Positions 1 through 11,792 of a stretch of 11,792 nucleotides of DNA are shown here, in pieces. The stretch lies in the IMG/VR virus record IMGVR_UViG_2713896777_000002, one strand, 5' to 3'. Every line of letters begins with the position of its first letter. Position 1 is the first letter of the stretch. The position numbers and the translations under genes were made by a program. The notes beneath the pieces are model-generated. The model ran no database searches, had not been told where the DNA came from, and saw only the letters and a list, made by a program, of their open reading frames with translations. Source of the DNA: a virus. Taxonomy: Duplodnaviria > Heunggongvirae > Uroviricota > Caudoviricetes.

Positions 1-1338
1 ATCCTTTTTCGCCGCCGCCATCAGCGTGTTGTAATCCGCCTGCAGGATTTTCCCGTCTTTCAGTGCCTTGTTCAGTTCTTCCTGACGGGCGGTATATTTC
101 TCCAGCGGCGTCTGCAGCCGTTCGTAAGCCTTCTGCGCCTCTTCGGTATATTTCAGCCGTGACGCTTCGGTATCGCTCTGCTGCTGCGCATTTTTGTCCT
201 GTTGAGTCTGCTGCTCAGCCTTCTTTCGGGCGGCTTCAAGCGCAAGACGGGCCTTTTCACGATCATCCCAGTAACGCGCCCGCGCTTCATCGTTAACAAA
301 ATAATCATCCTTGCGCAGATTCCAGATGTCGTCTGCTTTCTTAAACGCAGCCTCTGCCTTAATCAGCATCTCCTGCGCGGTATCAGGACGACCAATATCC
401 AGCACCGCATCCCACATGGATTTGAAGGCCCGCGCAGTCCTGTCTGCCCAGGTCTCCAGCGTGCCCATGTTCTCTTTCAGGCGGCGGGTCTGGTCATCAA
501 ACCCTTTCGTTGCGGCCTCGTTCGCCGCCTGCAATGCCCCGGCTTCATCGCCGGAACGCTGCAACTGAGCAACATACGCAATCTGCTCCGCCGTCACGTT
601 ATGGAACTGGCGTGCCATCGCCGTCAGCCCCGACGTCGGGTCTGTGGTCAGCTTCCCGAAGGCTTCAGCGACCTTGTCCACCTCCACGCCGGATGCAGAG
701 GAGAAACGCGCCACACTCTGGCTGATGGACGCAATCTGAGCCTCACCGCTTACCCCCGCCTTAACCAGTGCGCTGAGTGACTCGCTGGTCTGGTTAAACG
801 TCAGCCCTGCCGCCTGCCCGGCTCTGGACAGGACCAGCATACGATCTGCCGTCAGTCCCGCCTGATTGCCGGAAAGGACCAGCGTTTTGTTGAAATCGGA
901 CAGGGTTGAGTTGCCCTGATACCAGGCATACGCCAGCGCACCGGTCGCCACCGCCAGCGAGGTGGCCCCCACCATCGGCAGGGTGATCGCACCGGCAAGC
1001 CCCCTGAACATGGGGATCATCCCGCCGAAGGAGTCCTTCACCTGCCCCCCCTGTTGCAGCAGGATCAGCCACGGACTTTGCCCGCCTGCAAGCTGCGTGG
1101 CCACGTCGGTGAACTGTGCAGGCAGCATACGCATGGCGGCTTTATACTGCCCGACGGAAATCCCCGCTTTCTGTGCAGCCAGCGCCTGTCGGCTCAGCGA
1201 CTGTTCAACGACTGCCGCTGTTTTTTTCGCATCACTTTCCGTACCGGAAAAATGACGCCTGACTCTGGCCATCTGCTCGTCAAATCTGGCCGCATCCAGA
1301 CTTAAATCAACGACCAGATCGCCTACCGGTTCAGCCAT
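1..1338 (-). CDS. H: Tail tape measure protein gpH, N-terminal 446 codons; the gene continues beyond the left edge of the window
   Basis: Minus-strand ATG at 1336-1338 sits 2 nt after the T stop (1331-1333). Translation begins MAEPVGD... and the reverse complement of 1-63 reads LKDGKILQADYNTLMAAAKKD, in frame with codon 1-3. Both match lambda gpH as I recall it. No stop before the window edge, so it is absent from the ORF track. Confidence 0.9.
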   Translation of the reverse strand, partial: MAEPVGDLVVDLSLDAARFDEQMARVRRHFSGTESDAKKTAAVVEQSLSRQALAAQKAGISVGQYKAAMRMLPAQFTDVATQLAGGQSPWLILLQQGGQVKDSFGGMIPMFRGLAGAITLPMVGATSLAVATGALAYAWYQGNSTLSDFNKTLVLSGNQAGLTADRMLVLSRAGQAAGLTFNQTSESLSALVKAGVSGEAQIASISQSVARFSSASGVEVDKVAEAFGKLTTDPTSGLTAMARQFHNVTAEQIAYVAQLQRSGDEAGALQAANEAATKGFDDQTRRLKENMGTLETWADRTARAFKSMWDAVLDIGRPDTAQEMLIKAEAAFKKADDIWNLRKDDYFVNDEARARYWDDREKARLALEAARKKAEQQTQQDKNAQQQSDTEASRLKYTEEAQKAYERLQTPLEKYTARQEELNKALKDGKILQADYNTLMAAAKKD

Positions 1339-2169
1339 ACCGGACTCCTCCTGCGATCCCTTCTGATACTGTCATCAGCATTACGTCATCCTCCGTCATG
1401 TCCGCCACATCCGGGGAAGCGGGGATAACTTCATTCCCGTCCGGGCCAAAGCGGACGCCTCCGGCAAGCCCTGCCGCTTTCTGCATCAGCACATCATCTT
1501 CAGGCTCTTCGTCAGCCTCACGCCGGTTCAGCAGACTGAAATCCAGCGGATGCATATCCGGATCGCTGAAAAACAGGCTGAGCACGGTGTACGTCAGCCC
1601 GGAAAAGTGCATATCCAGCAGAACATCATGAAAATAATGGGTACTGTAAAAGCGGTGCCAGTCGGCATACTCCGTGGATGACATCCCGGCAAGCATGGCA
1701 CGCCAGTCGGGTCGCCCCATCTCGCGCGCCAGTTTCAGGGCAAAACTCAGCTCACCGTCGAACACTTTCCCGCAGAAACAGGCTCTGCAGGCCCGGCGTC
1801 CTCTGCCTGTTCAGGGGCATCATTCACCACAAACTCATACATACCGGACAGCCGGTACACCACGTTTTCAGCATGAGAAATTGCCTCTGTGGGCCAGGTG
1901 GTAAGCACTTCCTGCTCAATCTGTTTAACGGCTTCATTCATGGAAGGCTGCTTTGTCTTCTGCGGATGGTTATGCCACAGGGACATCGCCACCACAAAAG
2001 CACCGGTTCTGATGGCGTCTTCCACTGTAAACTTCCGGTTGCTGTCTGACTCCGCCTGTTCTGCCTGCCGTTTCATCAGGGCGAGATGCTCAATACGCTG
2101 CAGGGCTGAAAGTTCAGAAAGCGTGACGGTCACGCCGTTATGTTCAAATGATTCGGTTTTCAGGAACAT
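1331..2169 (-). CDS. T: Tail assembly chaperone gpG-T, made by programmed -1 ribosomal frameshift from G into the T frame at the slippery site near 1765-1771
   Basis: The T-frame ORF (1331-1765, MFDGELSFALKLAREMGRPDWRAML...) overlaps the 3' end of G in the -1 frame and has no ribosome-binding context of its own. The heptamer GGGAAAG is present on the minus strand at 1765-1771, six codons before the G stop. This is the established lambda G/G-T arrangement. Confidence 0.85.
1747..2169 (-). CDS. G: Tail assembly chaperone gpG (140 aa)
   Basis: ORF-track translation MFLKTESFEHNGVTVTLSELSALQRIEHLALMKRQ... matches lambda gpG. ATG at 2167-2169, stop at 1747-1749. Position between V and T fits lambda order. 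Confidence 0.93.
   Translation of the reverse strand: MFLKTESFEHNGVTVTLSELSALQRIEHLALMKRQAEQAESDSNRKFTVEDAIRTGAFVVAMSLWHNHPQKTKQPSMNEAVKQIEQEVLTTWPTEAISHAENVVYRLSGMYEFVVNDAPEQAEDAGPAEPVSAGKCSTVS
1765..1771 (-). other. -1 programmed frameshift slippery heptamer G GGA AAG (G to G-T)
   Basis: Plus strand reads ctttccc at 1765-1771, which is GGGAAAG on the minus strand, inside the G/T overlap. Confidence 0.8.
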
Positions 2170-2184
2170 CGCTGACTCTCCGGA

Positions 2185-2925
2185 TTAACTGTCGGTGACA
2201 GTGATTTCTGCAACCGCAGCAAGTTCACCATTACCGGATACGACCGGAATGTTGACCTTGCCTGCAGCAACACCTTTCACGGTGATGGTCATACCACTGA
2301 CCGACACGGTGGCTTTTGTTTTATCCGCAGACACCGCACGGAAGCTCTTGTCGGTTGCGCCTTCCGGCTGGAATGCCACGGTCAGCGTGGTGCTCTGCCC
2401 TTTCACCACCGAGGTGCTGGCAGGCGTCACGGTCATGCCGGTTGCCGCTGTGACCGTGCTGCGATCTTCTGCCATCGACGGGCGTCCCACATTGGTGACC
2501 TTCACCGTGCGGGTGATCACTTCCTTCGCCGTCACCGCTTTACCGATACTGCTGACCCAGCCACGGAACACATCGACCGTGCCGTTCGGGAAGCGGATTT
2601 TATAGGCACGGGTATCACCTTCATTAAACCACGCCAGCAGCGCCTGCTGCCCCTGCTCTCCGGGCATCCACGCCAGCGTGAAGCTGGTATCTCCGGCTGA
2701 TTTCTGCCCCTGCCCGGTCGCAGTCCAGTCCGCATCTTCATCATCGAGATAGCTGTCGTCATAGGACTCAGCGGTCAGTTCGCCGGGCGTCAGGTCTTTA
2801 ACTTTTGCCAGACGCGACCAGTCAACGTCTGAAAGCGGATTCGCATAAGGGTCACCGCTCCCCTTATAAACCCACAGGGTGGTCCCGGCACCTTTCACCG
2901 GCATTACAGGATTTGGTACAGGCAT
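2185..2925 (-). CDS. V: Major tail tube protein gpV (246 aa)
   Basis: Translation from the ATG at 2923-2925 is [31 protein letters not shown]..., matching lambda gpV. A GAGGA Shine-Dalgarno lies upstream. The ORF-track start at 2955 is an upstream in-frame extension overlapping U and is unlikely to be used. Confidence 0.92.
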
Positions 2926-2932
2926 AGCGTCC

Positions 2933-3328
2933 TCACATTTCATAGGTAATGACATAAGTCAGATCGGCTGAACTCCACAGGCCCGCATCATCGTCGCGTC
3001 GGTAGTCATAGCCACTGGCCACCATACTGGTGATCAACTCTGACAGTGCCGGGATATCGCTCATCACCGGATAAATCCGGGACTCCATCCACGCATCCAG
3101 CTCTGAATCCGGCACCTGAGCAGGCAGGAAAACTTCNATATGCAGCTCCGCCTGCCAGGTATCGCTGTCCAGCTCTTCGCCCGTGTATTCAGCGCCGGTG
3201 AGATAAACGGCAACTGCCGGAAAATCCGCCTCATCAAAAACAGCGGGGCGACCATCAAAAAACGTCGCCCCGGTGTCATGCTTCTCCAGTGCATCCAGTA
3301 CGGCTGCACGGAGTTCAGTATGTTTCAT
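2933..3328 (-). CDS. U: Tail terminator protein gpU (131 aa)
   Basis: Translation [33 protein letters not shown]... matches lambda gpU. ATG at 3326-3328 overlaps the Z stop in an ATGA arrangement. One codon is X because of the ambiguous base at 3137. Confidence 0.92.
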
Positions 3329-3781
3329 CGCTTTATTACCATCCTCAGTTGATGCTGCAGCGCATAGCCCAGCTCTTTCGGAAGACGTTCACGCCGTATC
3401 CGCTCAATATTTTGTTTAAACGCCGTGGTCAGCGGCACCGCCATCGGGATTTTCACCACATCAATGGGGTAACGGTTTTTCCCGGCCACACGCTGCATNA
3501 CATGCCACCGNCCATTTTTCAGTTGCTGAATAAACGCGCCGGGAATACGACGGTTNCCCACCACAAGCACGCTGCCGCCACCTTTCAGGGATGAACGCTG
3601 CCCCTTTTTACGACGCCTGCGTCGGGACAGGACAACCCGCGCATTCCCCAGCTTGATTACGGGCAAATCCCCCCGGTTAACCTTGATTCTGGCCTGCGGA
3701 TTTTTAACCGTGGCCCTTTTCAGCCTGGCCCTTTCCTTTACCAGTTTCCGGCGTACCTTTGTCTCACGGGCAACCTGTGAC
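3325..3781 (-). CDS. Z: Tail completion protein gpZ, C-terminal portion only; the 5' end is lost in the N gap
   Basis: Translation immediately after the gap reads SQVARETKVRRKLVKERARLKRATVKNPQARIKVNRGDLPVIKLGNARVV...LRMVIKR, matching about residues 42-192 of lambda gpZ. Stop at 3325-3327. Three X residues come from ambiguous bases at 3499, 3511 and 3556. Confidence 0.88.
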
Positions 3782-3847
3782 NNNNNNNNNNNNNNNNNNN
3801 NNNNNNNNNNNNNNNNNNNNNNNNNNNNNNNNNNNNNNNNNNNNNNN
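3782..3847. other. Assembly gap: run of 66 N
   Basis: Directly visible as 66 consecutive n characters. Flanked by FII sequence on the high-coordinate side and Z sequence on the low-coordinate side. Confidence 1.
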
Positions 3848-4167
3848 CGCCCAAGCCAGAGATGACAGCTTCCGCCATCATCCGGCGAAATCCGGTCTAT
3901 CCAGAAGTTTTCCTCACCGATGGTCAGCGTGTCTCCACGCCGCAGCTGCCGCACATCATCAGTCCGGACAAACAGGGACGGGCTGGAGCCTTCAACGCGC
4001 ACGCCCTGTCCGGCATAGCTGATATTTTCAGGGTCATCAAAAACACCACGTATCACAGCACCGGACTGCTCACCGGATGTCATGGTGGCTGACGTTCCCA
4101 TGTACCCGCGTATCGTTTCATCGGCGCAGGCAATGGCAGCATCGAACAGGTTATCGAAATCAGCCAC
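3848..4167 (-). CDS. FII: Head-tail connector protein gpFII, N-terminal about 106 codons; the 3' end is lost in the N gap
   Basis: Translation MADFDNLFDAAIACADETIRGYMGTSATMTSGEQSGAVIRGVFDDPENISYAGQGVRVEGSS...SCHLWLG matches lambda gpFII. The start codon is GTG (plus strand cac at 4165-4167), preceded by GGGAGG. Confidence 0.88.
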
Positions 4168-4178
4168 AGCGCCTCCCG

Positions 4179-4574
4179 TTATTGCATTCTGGCCAGGCCA
4201 CGTTCTGTCATTTCGGCTGCCACACCGGCAGAGACACGAAACGCCGTTCCCGGCAGCACAAATGCCACAGGTTCATCCCGCGTGGCGTGAAGTGCATCGG
4301 TATGCAGCGTCACCAGTGCCACAACCGTGACCAGAGCAGCCGTATCAGTCACGGTATCCGTCTGTGCTGATACCACCTCATTTTCATGTCCGGTCAGCGC
4401 ATTTTCCGGGCTGACAGACGTGTCCTGACCGGCTGCGTCATCCGTGTCATCAAGCTCCTCTTCCAGCTCTGCCACACGGAGCGCCAGTTCTTCTTTCGTC
4501 CCCGTCAGGCTGACATCACGGTTCAGTTGTTCACCCAGCGAGCGGAGACGGGCAATCAGTTCATCTTTCGTCAT
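4179..4574 (-). CDS. FI: DNA packaging / head completion protein gpFI (131 aa here)
   Basis: Translation from the ATG at 4572-4574 is MTKDELIARLRSLGEQLNRDVSLTGTKEELALRVAEL..., with C-terminus ...HATRDEPVAFVLPGTAFRVSAGVAAEMTERGLARMQ, matching lambda gpFI. The ORF-track start at 4613 is an upstream extension. The central acidic segment looks divergent and one codon shorter than I recall for lambda. Confidence 0.88.
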   Translation of the reverse strand: MTKDELIARLRSLGEQLNRDVSLTGTKEELALRVAELEEELDDTDDAAGQDTSVSPENALTGHENEVVSAQTDTVTDTAALVTVVALVTLHTDALHATRDEPVAFVLPGTAFRVSAGVAAEMTERGLARMQ

Positions 4575-4615
4575 GGACTCATCCACAGAGAAACAATGGC
4601 CCCGAAGGGCCATGA

Positions 4616-5641
4616 TTACGCCAGTTGTACAGACACGAACTCATCAGGGTCAGCCAGCAGCATCAGCGGTGCTGACTGAATCATGGTGAACTCTCGCGCC
4701 GGATCGCCGGTAGTCACCCAGTTTTTCGGGTAACGGGCAGAGGCGTTAATGCCTTCGCGCTGTGCGTCCGCATCCTGAATACAGCCATAGGTACGCAGAC
4801 CGCGTGCCTGAGTGTTCCCCAGCACCATCGTGTTGTCCGGCAGGAAGTTCTTTTTGACGCCGTTTTCCACGTACTGTCCGGAATACACGACGATGGCCAC
4901 ATCGCCATACATTCCCTTATAAGACACCGCTTTGCCCAGGTCTTTTACCGCTGTCTCCAGCTCGGAATGAGAGCCGCGACGGGTATCCAGCTTATCCCTG
5001 ACGGCTTTGAAGGAACGGAACAGCGCCCATCCTTTCGGATCAAACACGATGATATTCACCACGCCGCTGGCGTTCAGCGCGTAGGCTTCGATATCGTCGG
5101 TCGGGTCATACGTGGACTTGTCACGCTTGCTCCACTCCGTGCCACCGGACTGTGTGATGTTGTTTGCCGCACTGCGGCCCATATCCACCTCAACCGGATC
5201 AAAGGCTTCACCGGTCATGGTGTATTTGCCCTTAAGCACGGCAGAAACTGCCTGCATCTCTTCGACCTGAGCAATGGCCAGCTCTTCGTCTCGCATGTTC
5301 TGCAGGATGATGCGACGGCGGCGGTAAGCCGGGTCCGCCAGATTCTGTGGATCTTCATCCGGCAGGCGACGCAGGGTCATCTGCGGATTCACTTCATGCT
5401 TGGGTTTGACATATCCCGGCGTAAATTCAGAGGTGGAGCCGCCACGGGAGCGGATAACCTCACCGGAAACAATCGGCGAAACGTACAGCGCCATGTTTAC
5501 CAGTCCCGGAATTTGTGAGAGATAGACTTTCTCCGTGGTGAAGGGATAGCTCTCACGGAAAAAGAGACGCAGAAACAGCGGATCAAACTTAAATTTCTGC
5601 TCATTTGCCGCCAGCAGCTGGGCGGTTGTGTACATCGACAT
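4616..5641 (-). CDS. E: Major capsid protein gpE (341 aa)
   Basis: Translation from the ATG at 5639-5641 is MSMYTTAQLLAANEQKFKFDPLFLRLFFRESYPFTTEKVYLSQIPGLVNMALYVSPIVSG..., matching lambda gpE. The 9-codon upstream extension in the ORF track runs into the intergenic hairpin and is unlikely to be real. Confidence 0.93.
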   Translation of the reverse strand: MSMYTTAQLLAANEQKFKFDPLFLRLFFRESYPFTTEKVYLSQIPGLVNMALYVSPIVSGEVIRSRGGSTSEFTPGYVKPKHEVNPQMTLRRLPDEDPQNLADPAYRRRRIILQNMRDEELAIAQVEEMQAVSAVLKGKYTMTGEAFDPVEVDMGRSAANNITQSGGTEWSKRDKSTYDPTDDIEAYALNASGVVNIIVFDPKGWALFRSFKAVRDKLDTRRGSHSELETAVKDLGKAVSYKGMYGDVAIVVYSGQYVENGVKKNFLPDNTMVLGNTQARGLRTYGCIQDADAQREGINASARYPKNWVTTGDPAREFTMIQSAPLMLLADPDEFVSVQLA

Positions 5642-5654
5642 AAAAAAATCCCGT

Positions 5655-5676
5655 AAAAAAAGCCGCACAGGCGGCC
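5655..5676 (-). terminator. Stem-loop (GCCGC-CTGT-GCGGC) followed by a T7 run on the coding strand, between the D stop and the E start; possible partial intrinsic terminator or RNA structure
   Basis: Plus strand 5655-5675 is aaaaaaa gccgc acag gcggc. On the minus-strand transcript this gives GCCGCCUGUGCGGC followed by UUUUUUU, then ACGGGAUUUUUUU and the E start codon. Confidence 0.4.
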
Positions 5677-5696
5677 TTTAGTGATGAAGGGTAAGG

Positions 5697-6029
5697 TTAA
5701 ACGATGCTGATTGCCGTTCCGGCAAACGCGGTCCGTTTTTTCGTCTCATCGCTGGCAGCCTCCGGCCAGAGCACATCCTCATAACGGAACGTGCCGGACT
5801 TGTAGAACGTCAGCGTGGTGCTGGTCTGGTCAGCAGCAACCGCCAGAATGCCAACGGCAGCACCGTCGGTGGTGCCATCCCACGCAACCAGCTTACGGGT
5901 GGCGGTGTCCAGCATCAGCGGGGTCATTGCAGACGCTTTCGCACTCAATCCGCCGGGCGCGGTTGCGGTATGAGCCGGGTCACTGTTGCCCAGCGGCTGG
6001 TAATGGGTAAAGGTTTCTTTGCTCGTCAT
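5697..6029 (-). CDS. D: Capsid decoration protein gpD (110 aa)
   Basis: Translation from the ATG at 6027-6029 is [110 protein letters not shown], matching lambda gpD apart from about four positions as I recall the reference. An AAGGGA Shine-Dalgarno is at suitable spacing. Confidence 0.93.
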
Positions 6030-6038
6030 AAACATCCC

Positions 6039-6644
6039 TTACACTGGTGTGTTCAGCAAATCGTTAACGGCATCAGATGCCGGGTTACCTGCAGCCAGCG
6101 GTGCCGGTGCCCCCTGCATCAGACGATCCAGCGCAGTATCACTGCGCGCCTGTGCACTCTGTGGTGCTGCGGCCAGAATGCGGCGGGCCGTTTCCACGGT
6201 CATACCGGGGGTTTCTGCCAGCACGCGTGCCTGTTCTTCGCGTCCGTGAGCCTCCTCACAGTTGAGGATCCCCATAATGCGGCTGTTTTCTGCCGCAACC
6301 GCTGCGGTGATCTGCGCGTTCACGTCCGGCTGCGCCGCGCTGGCGTTTTCGCCCTCCGTCGCTGGCACCACGTCAGTAACGTCAGCCTGCGAAGCAGTGG
6401 CTGAAACAGTTGTTGATTGAGTCTCTTTGGTCATTCGCCCTCCTGAGAGACGGGATTTACGTGCATCCAGTGCATCACGCATGACGGTGATCGCATCGGT
6501 GCTGTTAACAAGTTCATCAGCCAGTCCGGCATCAATGGCCTCCTGACCGCTGTACACTGCAGCCTCGGTATCCAGCACAGCCTGCACGGACAGGCCGGTA
6601 TATGCCGACACCTTCTGCGCAAACATCCGGCGGGTTGCATCCAT
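6039..6644 (-). CDS. Nu3: Capsid scaffolding protein Nu3 (201 aa), encoded in frame within the 3' part of C
   Basis: Internal ATG at 6642-6644 is in the C reading frame. Translation MDATRRMFAQKVSAYTGLSVQAVLDTEAAVYSGQEAIDAGLADELVNSTDAITVMRDALDARKSRLSGGRMTKETQ...DLLNTPV is 201 aa and shares the C stop at 6039-6041. This matches the lambda C/Nu3 nesting. Confidence 0.85.
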   Translation of the reverse strand: MDATRRMFAQKVSAYTGLSVQAVLDTEAAVYSGQEAIDAGLADELVNSTDAITVMRDALDARKSRLSGGRMTKETQSTTVSATASQADVTDVVPATEGENASAAQPDVNAQITAAVAAENSRIMGILNCEEAHGREEQARVLAETPGMTVETARRILAAAPQSAQARSDTALDRLMQGAPAPLAAGNPASDAVNDLLNTPV

Positions 6645-7338
6645 CCGGGACTGCAGTGTTTCCCGGACATCACCCGGTAGATGGCTGTAGGGGTTGCCAT
6701 CCACCTTATGGCTGCCGCTGTAAATCAGCGTGATTTCCACGCCCTGTTTCTCCAGGGCAGCACCGTAATTACTGTGAGCCATCATGACGCCGATGGAGCC
6801 TGTCCGGGCGGTCTGCGTGACCAGACGCCGGGAGGCGGCGCTGGCAAGCAGCTGACCTGCACTGCAGTTCATGTCGTTGGCCAGCGCCCATACCGGTTTT
6901 ATGTCACGCACACGGGCGATGATGTCAGCACAGTCAAATGCTCCCGCCACCATTCCGCCCGGTGTGTCCATATCGAGCAGAATGCCGTCCACCATCGGGT
7001 CGCTGGCAGCCTGTTGCAGACGGGCGATAATGCCGTTGTAACCGGTCATCCCCGAATACGGCTGCAGCGCCCGCGTCCGGCTGACCAGCGTACCGGACAC
7101 CGGCAGCACGGCGATGCCGTTCATGACCTGATAACTCCGGGCCTGTCGTGGTCCGTCATCATCACCGGATAACGCCAGCGCCGCGGGTGCCTCTCCGGCA
7201 GTCAGGCTGTCGCCGGATACTGCATCCGTCAGGCGGCTGATCCCAAGCTGGCCTGCAAGCGCACAAAAGAAAACCCGCGCATAGGCGGGTTCAAGCATCA
7301 GCGGCTCATTAAAAGCCATGCTGGCAATATGCGGGAGA

Positions 7339-7358
<20 letters not shown>
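6039..7358 (-). CDS. C: Capsid assembly protease / minor capsid protein gpC (439 aa), ClpP/SppA-like serine peptidase fold
   Basis: Translation (V/M)TAELRNLPHIASMAFNEPLMLEPAYARVFFCALAGQLGIS... matches lambda gpC. GTG start at 7356-7358, preceded by AGGAGG at suitable spacing. The start overlaps the B 3' end by 20 nt. The ORF-track 484-aa version is an in-frame upstream extension. Confidence 0.9.
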
Positions 7359-11039
<3,681 letters not shown>

Positions 11040-11065
<26 letters not shown>

Positions 11066-11585
11066 TCAGCAACCCCGGTATCAGTTCATCCAGCGCGGCT
11101 GCTTTGTTCATGGCTTTGATGATATCCCGTTTCAGGAAATCAACATGTCGGTTTTCCAGTTCCGGAAAACGCCGCTGCACCGACAGGGGGATCCCGTCGA
11201 GAATACTGGCAATTTCACCTGCGATCCGCGACAGCACGAAAGTACAGAATGCGGTTTCCACCACTTCAGCGGAGTCTCTGGCATTTTTCAGCTCCTGTGC
11301 GTCGGCCTGCGCACGCGTAAGTCGATGGCGTTCGTACTCAATAGTCCCTGGCTGGAGATCTGTCTCGCTGGCCTGCCGCAGTTCTTCAACTTCCCGGCGC
11401 AGCTTTTCGTTCTCAATTTCAGCATCCCTTTCGGCATACCATTTTATGACGGCGGCAGAGTCATAAAGCACCTCATTACCCTTGCCACCGCCTCGCAGAA
11501 CGGGCATTCCCTGTTCCTGCCAGTTCTGAATGGTACGGATACTCGCACCGAAAATGTCAGCCAGCTGCTTTTTGTTGACTTCCAT
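11040..11585 (-). CDS. Nu1: Terminase small subunit gpNu1 (181 aa)
   Basis: Translation MEVNKKQLADIFGASIRTIQNWQEQGMPVLRGGGKGNEVLYDSAAVIKWYAERDAEIENEKLRREVEELRQASE... matches lambda gpNu1, which has an N-terminal winged-HTH DNA-binding domain. ATG at 11583-11585, stop at 11040-11042. Confidence 0.95.
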
Positions 11586-11611
11586 TGTTCATTCCACGGA
11601 CAAAAACAGAG

Positions 11612-11726
11612 AAAGGAAACGACAGAGGCCAAAAAGCTCGTTTTCAGCACCTGTCGTTTCCTTTCTTTTCAGAGGGTGTTTTAAATAAAAACATTAAGTT
11701 ACGACGAAGAAGAACGGAAACGCCTT
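11612..11726. promoter_or_regulatory. cosB terminase-binding region: three R elements (R1 11615-11625, R2 11651-11661, R3 11715-11724) and an AT-rich presumptive IHF site (about 11676-11705)
   Basis: R1 (ggaaacgacag) and R2 (ctgtcgtttcc) are perfect 11-bp inverted repeats. R3 (cggaaacgcc) shares the CGTTTCC core in R1 orientation. An AT-rich stretch (ttaaataaaaacattaagtt) lies between R3 and R2. Order and orientation relative to Nu1 and cosN match lambda cosB. Confidence 0.8.
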
Positions 11727-11762
11727 AAACCGGAAAATTTTCATAAATAGCGAAAACCCGCG

Positions 11763-11774
11763 AGGTCGCCGCCC
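11763..11774. other. cosN: the 12-bp cohesive-end sequence (reverse complement of GGGCGGCGACCT), present here in joined form
   Basis: Plus strand 11763-11774 is aggtcgccgccc. The reverse complement of 11751-11792 reads gcgatccgacaggttacg|gggcggcgacctcgcgggttttcg, i.e. lambda right end joined to lambda left end as I recall them. Confidence 0.85.
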
Positions 11775-11792
11775 CGTAACCTGTCGGATCGC

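Follow-up and report, generated by a model that had tools for sequence, protein, structure and literature searches.

The 11,792-nt stretch of DNA that we analyzed (hereafter, the window; IMG/VR record IMGVR_UViG_2713896777_000002) is very probably the late-gene module (packaging, head and proximal tail) of a lambda-type prophage from the chromosome of Escherichia coli O26:H11 PARC448, with patchy divergence from lambda and a gpFI centre evolving at a nearly neutral rate. The window differs by ~2% from laboratory lambda and by ~1% from the nearest sequenced prophages, and it belongs to a very common natural population of E. coli modules. A first-pass annotation made from the sequence alone had proposed that apparent amino-acid differences in gpD and gpFI point to a natural lambdoid prophage rather than to contamination by a lambda cloning vector. 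This proposal agrees with the identity to lambda (97.9%), with the existence of closer natural relatives, with the joined form of the cos site and with the E. coli origin of the source contig.

A Lambda-Type Structural Module Adjoining cos

Pairwise alignment of the window to lambda NC_001416 yielded 241 substitutions (2.1%) over 11,704 comparable bases, and the indels detected across the whole window are the loss of one codon in FI and of 1 nt in cosB. In a megablast search against phage records, lambda 1–11879 matched window 1–11774 in reversed orientation, again at 97.9% identity. The gene order, the gene overlaps, cosN and the slippery site between G and T are the same as in lambda, and the encoded proteins are 89–100% identical to their lambda counterparts. 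We obtained gene coordinates by transferring the annotation of NC_001416 (J02459) through the pairwise alignment. The long genes are all encoded on the minus strand and form a lambda-type structural module, collinear in the order Nu1-A-W-B-C/Nu3-D-E-FI-FII-Z-U-V-G-T-H, which adjoins cos; the Pfam families of the source contig agree with this layout.

Next to the cos region (cosB, cosN and right-end sequence; 11586–11792, also on the minus strand) stand Nu1, the terminase small subunit (11040–11585; two amino-acid differences relative to lambda), and A, the terminase large subunit (9140–11065). They are followed by W, the head-tail adaptor (8937–9143), whose DNA is identical to that of lambda, by B, the portal protein (7339–8940), and by C, the S49 protease/scaffold (6039–7358), which is intact, as is Nu3, nested within it at 6039–6644. 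The stretch 4179–6029 is exactly the gene block FI, E, D: the head decoration protein D (5697–6029), the major capsid protein E (4616–5641; six amino-acid differences; Pfam Phage_cap_E) and the DNA packaging chaperone FI (4179–4574), present as a 131-aa allele and placed by mapping from lambda.

The two following genes are interrupted by a run of 66 Ns (3782–3847), a scaffold gap to which no strand applies. The 5′ portion of FII, the head-tail joining gene, is located at 3848–4167 and its 3′ end is missing in the gap, as is the 5′ end of Z, whose 3′ portion spans 3325–3781 with single Ns at 3499, 3511 and 3556. In every relative, the gap stands for 167 nt that comprise the start of Z, a spacer and the end of FII. 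A 280-aa ORF at 3325–4167 in a mechanical ORF list is an artefact in which Z and FII are fused through the N-run. The N-run was also considered as the site of an insertion sequence, which we rejected: the relatives' ISCro1 element lies in gene C, at about window positions 6897–6904, and C is intact in the window.

Further along the module are the tail terminator U (2933–3328; one N at 3137), the major tail protein V (2185–2925; 246 aa, five differences), the tail assembly chaperone G (1747–2169; 140 aa, five differences) and T, the tail assembly protein that is a frameshift extension of G (1331–1765; 144 aa, no difference). The G-T slippery heptamer GGGAAAG (1765–1771) is conserved with lambda. 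The last gene is H, the tape measure protein, of which the 5′ part (1–1338) is present and which runs past the end of the window (Pfam TMP_2 on the source contig).

The assembled sequence continues across cos (...GCGATCCGACAGGTTACG|GGGCGGCGACCT...), with the 18 nt of the right end of the genome (11775–11792) joined to the 12-nt cohesive-end sequence of cosN (11763–11774); cosB presents three substitutions relative to lambda in addition to its 1-nt deletion. Because 18 nt of right-end sequence are found beyond cosN, cos is in its joined form. This form is expected of an integrated prophage or of circular or concatemeric DNA, not of the end of a virion genome or of a vector arm. No phage-host junction (attL/attR) is contained in the window, and integration is therefore deduced from the bacterial assembly that is the source of the sequence. 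The prophage status would follow from this origin together with the joined cos, which fits circular or concatemeric phage DNA as well.

The species Lambdavirus lambda is defined by the ICTV at a nucleotide identity of at least 95% over the whole genome. The window is 97.9% identical to lambda over the 11.8-kb structural arm, with the early, immunity and lysis regions located outside of it. In two related prophages that possess the exact gpA allele of the window (L016 and L018), the Pfam families of the early region are PerC, Dam, a LexA-like DNA-binding domain, RusA, KilA-N, DUF968 and antiterminator Q. This early region is presumably unlike that of lambda.

Relatives and Source of the Module

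We observed that this module is widespread in E. coli. Among 5426 complete genomes, 2944 present a place that covers at least 80% of the window, and the D-E-FI block (at least 80% covered) was found in 3080, with 169 records at an identity of at least 99%. The best matches over the whole window are chromosomal prophages with 99.0–99.2% identity, including those of UTME-2, 94_0962, PE164 and many O26:H11 and O111:H11 strains, versus 97.9% for any lambda record. These prophages are thus the closest relatives in the E. coli genome comparison that the first-pass annotation had proposed. No record was 100% identical across the whole window in the collections searched, where the best match reached 99.2%. 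Prophages such as those of UTME-2 and PE164 differ from the window by 93–110 substitutions and by three to five residues in gpFI; the gpD of UTME-2 is identical. The tail part of the window (1–3781) presents 99.7% identity to UTME-2 and PE164, and the module itself is thus a mosaic whose parts meet near the Z-FII gap.

A different pattern was observed for Stx1a-converting phages (LC645428–LC645437). Their D-E-FI block is 99.2–99.4% identical to that of the window, their gpD and gpFI proteins are the same and their head genes present 98.75% identity. In contrast, the tail genes that lie left of FII in these phages are of another type, with an identity of ~85% over 2090–3781 and no match further left. 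All six of the long proteins that we tested (gpA, gpB, gpC, gpD, gpE and gpFI) occur exactly in a public protein collection. The exact gpD and the exact gpFI were each found on at least 1000 contigs, and the exact gpC, gpE, gpB and gpA on 736, 21, 21 and 12 contigs, respectively. In a set of 13 related loci, the lambda-type FI (132 aa) and lambda-like gpD motifs were also found in natural isolates, for example L017, and both haplotypes therefore circulate.

Once reverse-complemented, contig LDYO01000071.1 (assembly GCA_001309565.1) is identical to the window over its full length of 11,792 bp. The corresponding accession, LDYO00000000, is E. coli O26:H11 PARC448, a strain of phylogroup B1 that is eae-positive and for which no stx is listed (Table 2, PMC4563881); its assembly contains 240 contigs built with ABySS from Illumina reads at ~489-fold coverage (PMC4563881). 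Another contig of this assembly, LDYO01000222.1 (locus L007), is 99.65% identical to the window over positions 6897–11792. This copy spans Nu1-A-W-B and continues into gene C, which is interrupted by an IS66-family element. UTME-2 and many O26 and O111 strains likewise carry ISCro1, an IS66-family element, in gene C, unlike the contig of the window. The two near-identical contigs indicate that the PARC448 genome possesses at least two lambda-type head modules.

With these two copies in one genome, the contig could combine reads from two or more co-resident lambda-like prophages of PARC448 into a chimeric consensus, in which case the alleles would be real and their combination would exist in no single phage. 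We consider this unlikely. Apart from the overlapping second contig, it is favored by the 66-N gap in place of 167 nt and by the single Ns at 3137, 3499, 3511 and 3556, all four of which fall on positions that are polymorphic among the relatives (5–6% of sites are polymorphic; chance ~1e-5). This suggests that reads of two co-resident prophages were merged around the region of the single Ns. In the best-matching records listed, each related complete genome also contains 3 to 11 matching places, and sub-regions of the window match different relatives better than the 99.2% of the best whole-window match. However, natural mosaicism yields the same patchwork, and the assembler kept the second copy apart over 4.9 kb. 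Moreover, each of the six tested long proteins exists exactly elsewhere, and several other assemblies, like the Stx1a phages, contain gpD and gpFI as a pair.

With at least two near-identical copies in the genome and Ns at polymorphic sites, the exact haplotype of the window could be partly a consensus. This leaves the results on gpD and gpFI intact, because other assemblies and the Stx1a phages contain both alleles together in exact form.

Amino-Acid Differences in gpD and gpFI

The first-pass annotation had cited three motifs of lambda gpD that read differently in the window, and all three were cited correctly: YQPQGN is replaced by YQPLGN (Q13L), AKAPAM by AKASAM (P33S) and DTSSRK by DTATRK (S43A and S44T). 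The protein is 110 aa long in both the window and lambda, and 106 of the 110 residues are identical. It matches the Pfam profile HDPD (PF02924) with 77.8 bits relative to a curated cut-off of 29.1, and a PDB 7VII chain with E = 3e-66.

The central acidic segment of gpFI had likewise been described as altered and one codon shorter, and the alignment to lambda bears this out (131 vs 132 aa). A total of 14 positions differ: 13 are substitutions (K38E, E46D, T47A, P53S, L54V, R56P, V59A, G68V, P72T, L77T, S80A, E81A and K90T) and I76 is absent owing to a 3-nt deletion of lambda 7430–7432. All these changes are located within residues 38–90, and residues 1–37 and 91–132 present the amino-acid sequence of lambda. 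The protein matches the Pfam profile PF14000 (Packaging_FI) with 174.1 bits relative to a cut-off of 27 (E = 2.4e-51).

The sole solved structure of gpFI is PDB 2LSM, a C-terminal construct of 61 residues, which aligns to residues 74–131 of the gpFI of the window. Almost all the gpFI changes are located in the central stretch, where constraint is weak, and in the first residues of this construct. The gpFI protein is reported to have a long flexible linker between its N-terminal part and a C-terminal domain whose target is the prohead. From this organization and the extent of the 2LSM construct, the central stretch is probably a disordered linker. The variant proteins would act as they do in lambda, where trimers of gpD cement the capsid and gpFI is the chaperone that brings terminase-DNA complexes to proheads.

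As the first-pass annotation had also indicated, gpA and gpB are nearly identical to the lambda proteins, with differences at three of 641 and seven of 533 residues, respectively. Their genes nonetheless contain 36 (A) and 35 (B) DNA substitutions, and the proteins are little changed because these differences are mostly synonymous. In the D-E-FI block, 57 of the 1851 bases differ from lambda; complete identity, the outcome under which the noted differences would not have been real, was not observed. The idea that the differences in gpD and gpFI mark a lambdoid relative stands, with one correction: the divergence is not specific to these genes and extends across the whole window, and it is the amino-acid changes alone that are concentrated in gpFI and gpD.

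Sequence Divergence and Constraint

We then compared the divergence of the genes of the window from lambda with the Nei-Gojobori method. The dN/dS ratio is low in A (0.025), E (0.076), B (0.085), U (0.10), C (0.118), V (0.12), G (0.15) and Nu1 (0.15). For D it is 0.65, on four nonsynonymous and two synonymous changes alone, and for the central stretch of FI (residues 38–90) it is 0.94 (dN 0.138, dS 0.147; 14.7 nonsynonymous and 5.3 synonymous changes), two ratios that are based on few changes, on which relaxed constraint and diversifying selection are not separable. The ratio is 0.62 for the whole FI gene, and residues 1–37 and 91–132 present zero nonsynonymous changes. The changes of most genes are largely synonymous because of purifying selection, and amino-acid change is concentrated in gpFI because the segment concerned, which sits between two conserved ends, looks nearly unconstrained. 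This explains why a reading at the protein level recovered differences in FI and D and found A and B essentially identical: the amino-acid changes fall in a weakly constrained stretch.

The differences between the window and lambda are also unevenly distributed, their number per 500 nt ranging from 2 to 24 (chi-square = 83.5; 23 degrees of freedom; p = 8e-9), and dS is higher in the central stretch of FI than elsewhere (0.147 vs about 0.08). Together, the uneven divergence and the raised dS of FI are typical of the mosaics that recombination creates in lambdoid phages. Such patchy divergence is expected when co-circulating lambdoid phages undergo homologous recombination. The acidic central stretch of gpFI, between the conserved N-terminal part and the C-terminal domain, evolves at a nearly neutral rate, and the four gpD changes are conservative and represent a standard allele of the prophages of enterohaemorrhagic E. 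coli (EHEC).

Relaxed constraint is the most likely reason for the near-neutral dN/dS in the centre of gpFI. It is quite improbable, in our view, that the changes of this stretch and of gpD are adaptive, through diversifying selection or through co-adaptation with a partner (such as terminase, prohead or an environmental factor), and not the product of drift at weakly constrained positions. The ratios of 0.94 and 0.65 do lie far above those of the other genes, and across 13 loci the central stretch of FI forms two main haplotypes (the 132-aa lambda type and the 131-aa type of the window) with few intermediates. Yet neither ratio exceeds 1, the counts behind them are small, and the raised dS points to the recombinational import of an older, more diverged patch. 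In addition, the functional domains that flank the stretch are unchanged and the gpD changes are conservative (S/A, S/T and P/S). A more specific version, in which FI residues 38–90 and perhaps a few gpD positions are under diversifying or partner-matching selection and the 132-aa lambda and 131-aa EHEC haplotypes of FI are functionally distinct, for example tuned to variants of the terminase or the prohead, appears if anything slightly less probable still.

Discussion

Laboratory lambda or a lambda cloning vector would be expected to present ~100% identity to NC_001416 or J02459, and such DNA contaminating the sample, with the differences introduced by sequencing or assembly error, can be dismissed: the lambda gene order and cos and the many lambda records matching at 97.9% are compatible with it, but the alignment and the natural prophages, which are nearer than lambda, rule out the contaminant, the recurrence of the exact gpD and gpFI alleles across thousands of independent contigs and the mostly synonymous nature of the 241 substitutions, which are structured by codon position in an assembly of ~489-fold coverage, rule out error, and the window contains no vector sequence and a joined cos.

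The main value of this result is one of quality control: the lambda-like sequence in the dataset is genuine prophage DNA of a natural E. coli O26:H11 isolate and not cloning-vector contamination. Since the alleles, the module and its distribution across E. coli are all present in public databases, they were already known and constitute no new biology. More generally, these results illustrate that a modest nucleotide divergence shows at the protein level only in weakly constrained segments, of which the centre of gpFI is an example.

Mosaic structure and divergence from lambda

The window presents a mosaic junction near its 66-N gap, between a tail part (positions 1-3781) and a head part (3848-11792). 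Over the tail part, identity is 99.7% to the chromosomal prophages of E. coli strains UTME-2 and PE164 but only ~85% to the Stx1a-converting phages (LC645428-LC645437), where these have the region at all. The head part presents 98.7-99.0% identity to the UTME-2 and PE164 prophages and to the Stx1a phages alike. The run of 66 N itself (3782-3847) is a scaffold gap whose length is arbitrary; it takes the place of 167 nt that are present in all relatives and comprise the 3' end of FII, the 5' end of Z and the spacer between them. The 280-aa ORF at 3325-4167 in the mechanical ORF list reads through this run and was rejected as an artefact.

Relative to reference lambda (NC_001416), the divergence of the window per 500 nt ranges from 0.4% (region of genes H and T) to 4.8% (FI). 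In both gpB (gene B, 7339-8940, minus strand) and gpV (gene V, 2185-2925, minus strand), the amino-acid changes are clustered. Those of gpB form the groups S160R/S161P and Q301N/E305D/R306K/T308A, and four of the five changes in gpV (V190A, N217K, F235L and A245D) fall in its C-terminal part, which probably corresponds to the Ig-like Big_2 domain. The cos region (11586-11792) is in the joined form and includes 18 nt of right-end sequence. Its cosN is identical to that of lambda; cosB differs by three substitutions and lacks 1 nt (lambda position 139). The 18-nt right end presumably carries one further difference, GCGATCC against GTGATCC in the lambda right end.

A second Nu1-A-W-B copy and related prophages

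A second Nu1-A-W-B copy was found within the same genome (E. coli O26:H11 PARC448, GCA_001309565.1) on contig LDYO01000222.1, which aligns to window positions 6897-11792 with 99.65% identity (17 mismatches over 4896 nt). Gene C of this copy is interrupted by an IS66-family element encoding TnpA, TnpB and a transposase; the ISCro1 insertion in gene C is common to this contig, strain UTME-2 and many complete O26:H11 and O111:H11 genomes. The window also contains four isolated Ns (3137, 3499, 3511 and 3556), all of which lie on sites that are polymorphic among related prophages (probability by chance ~1e-5). This suggests that the assembler merged reads of two co-resident lambda-like prophages around these sites.

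Finally, in two contigs of related prophages encoding the exact gpA allele of the window (L016 and L018), the stretch upstream of Nu1 contains bor/iss, an OmpC/NmpC-like porin, a DUF1398 gene and an early region encoding PerC, Dam, a LexA-like DNA-binding domain, RusA, KilA-N, DUF968 and antiterminator Q. We read these prophages as lambda-type structural genes joined to an early region that is presumably unlike that of lambda.
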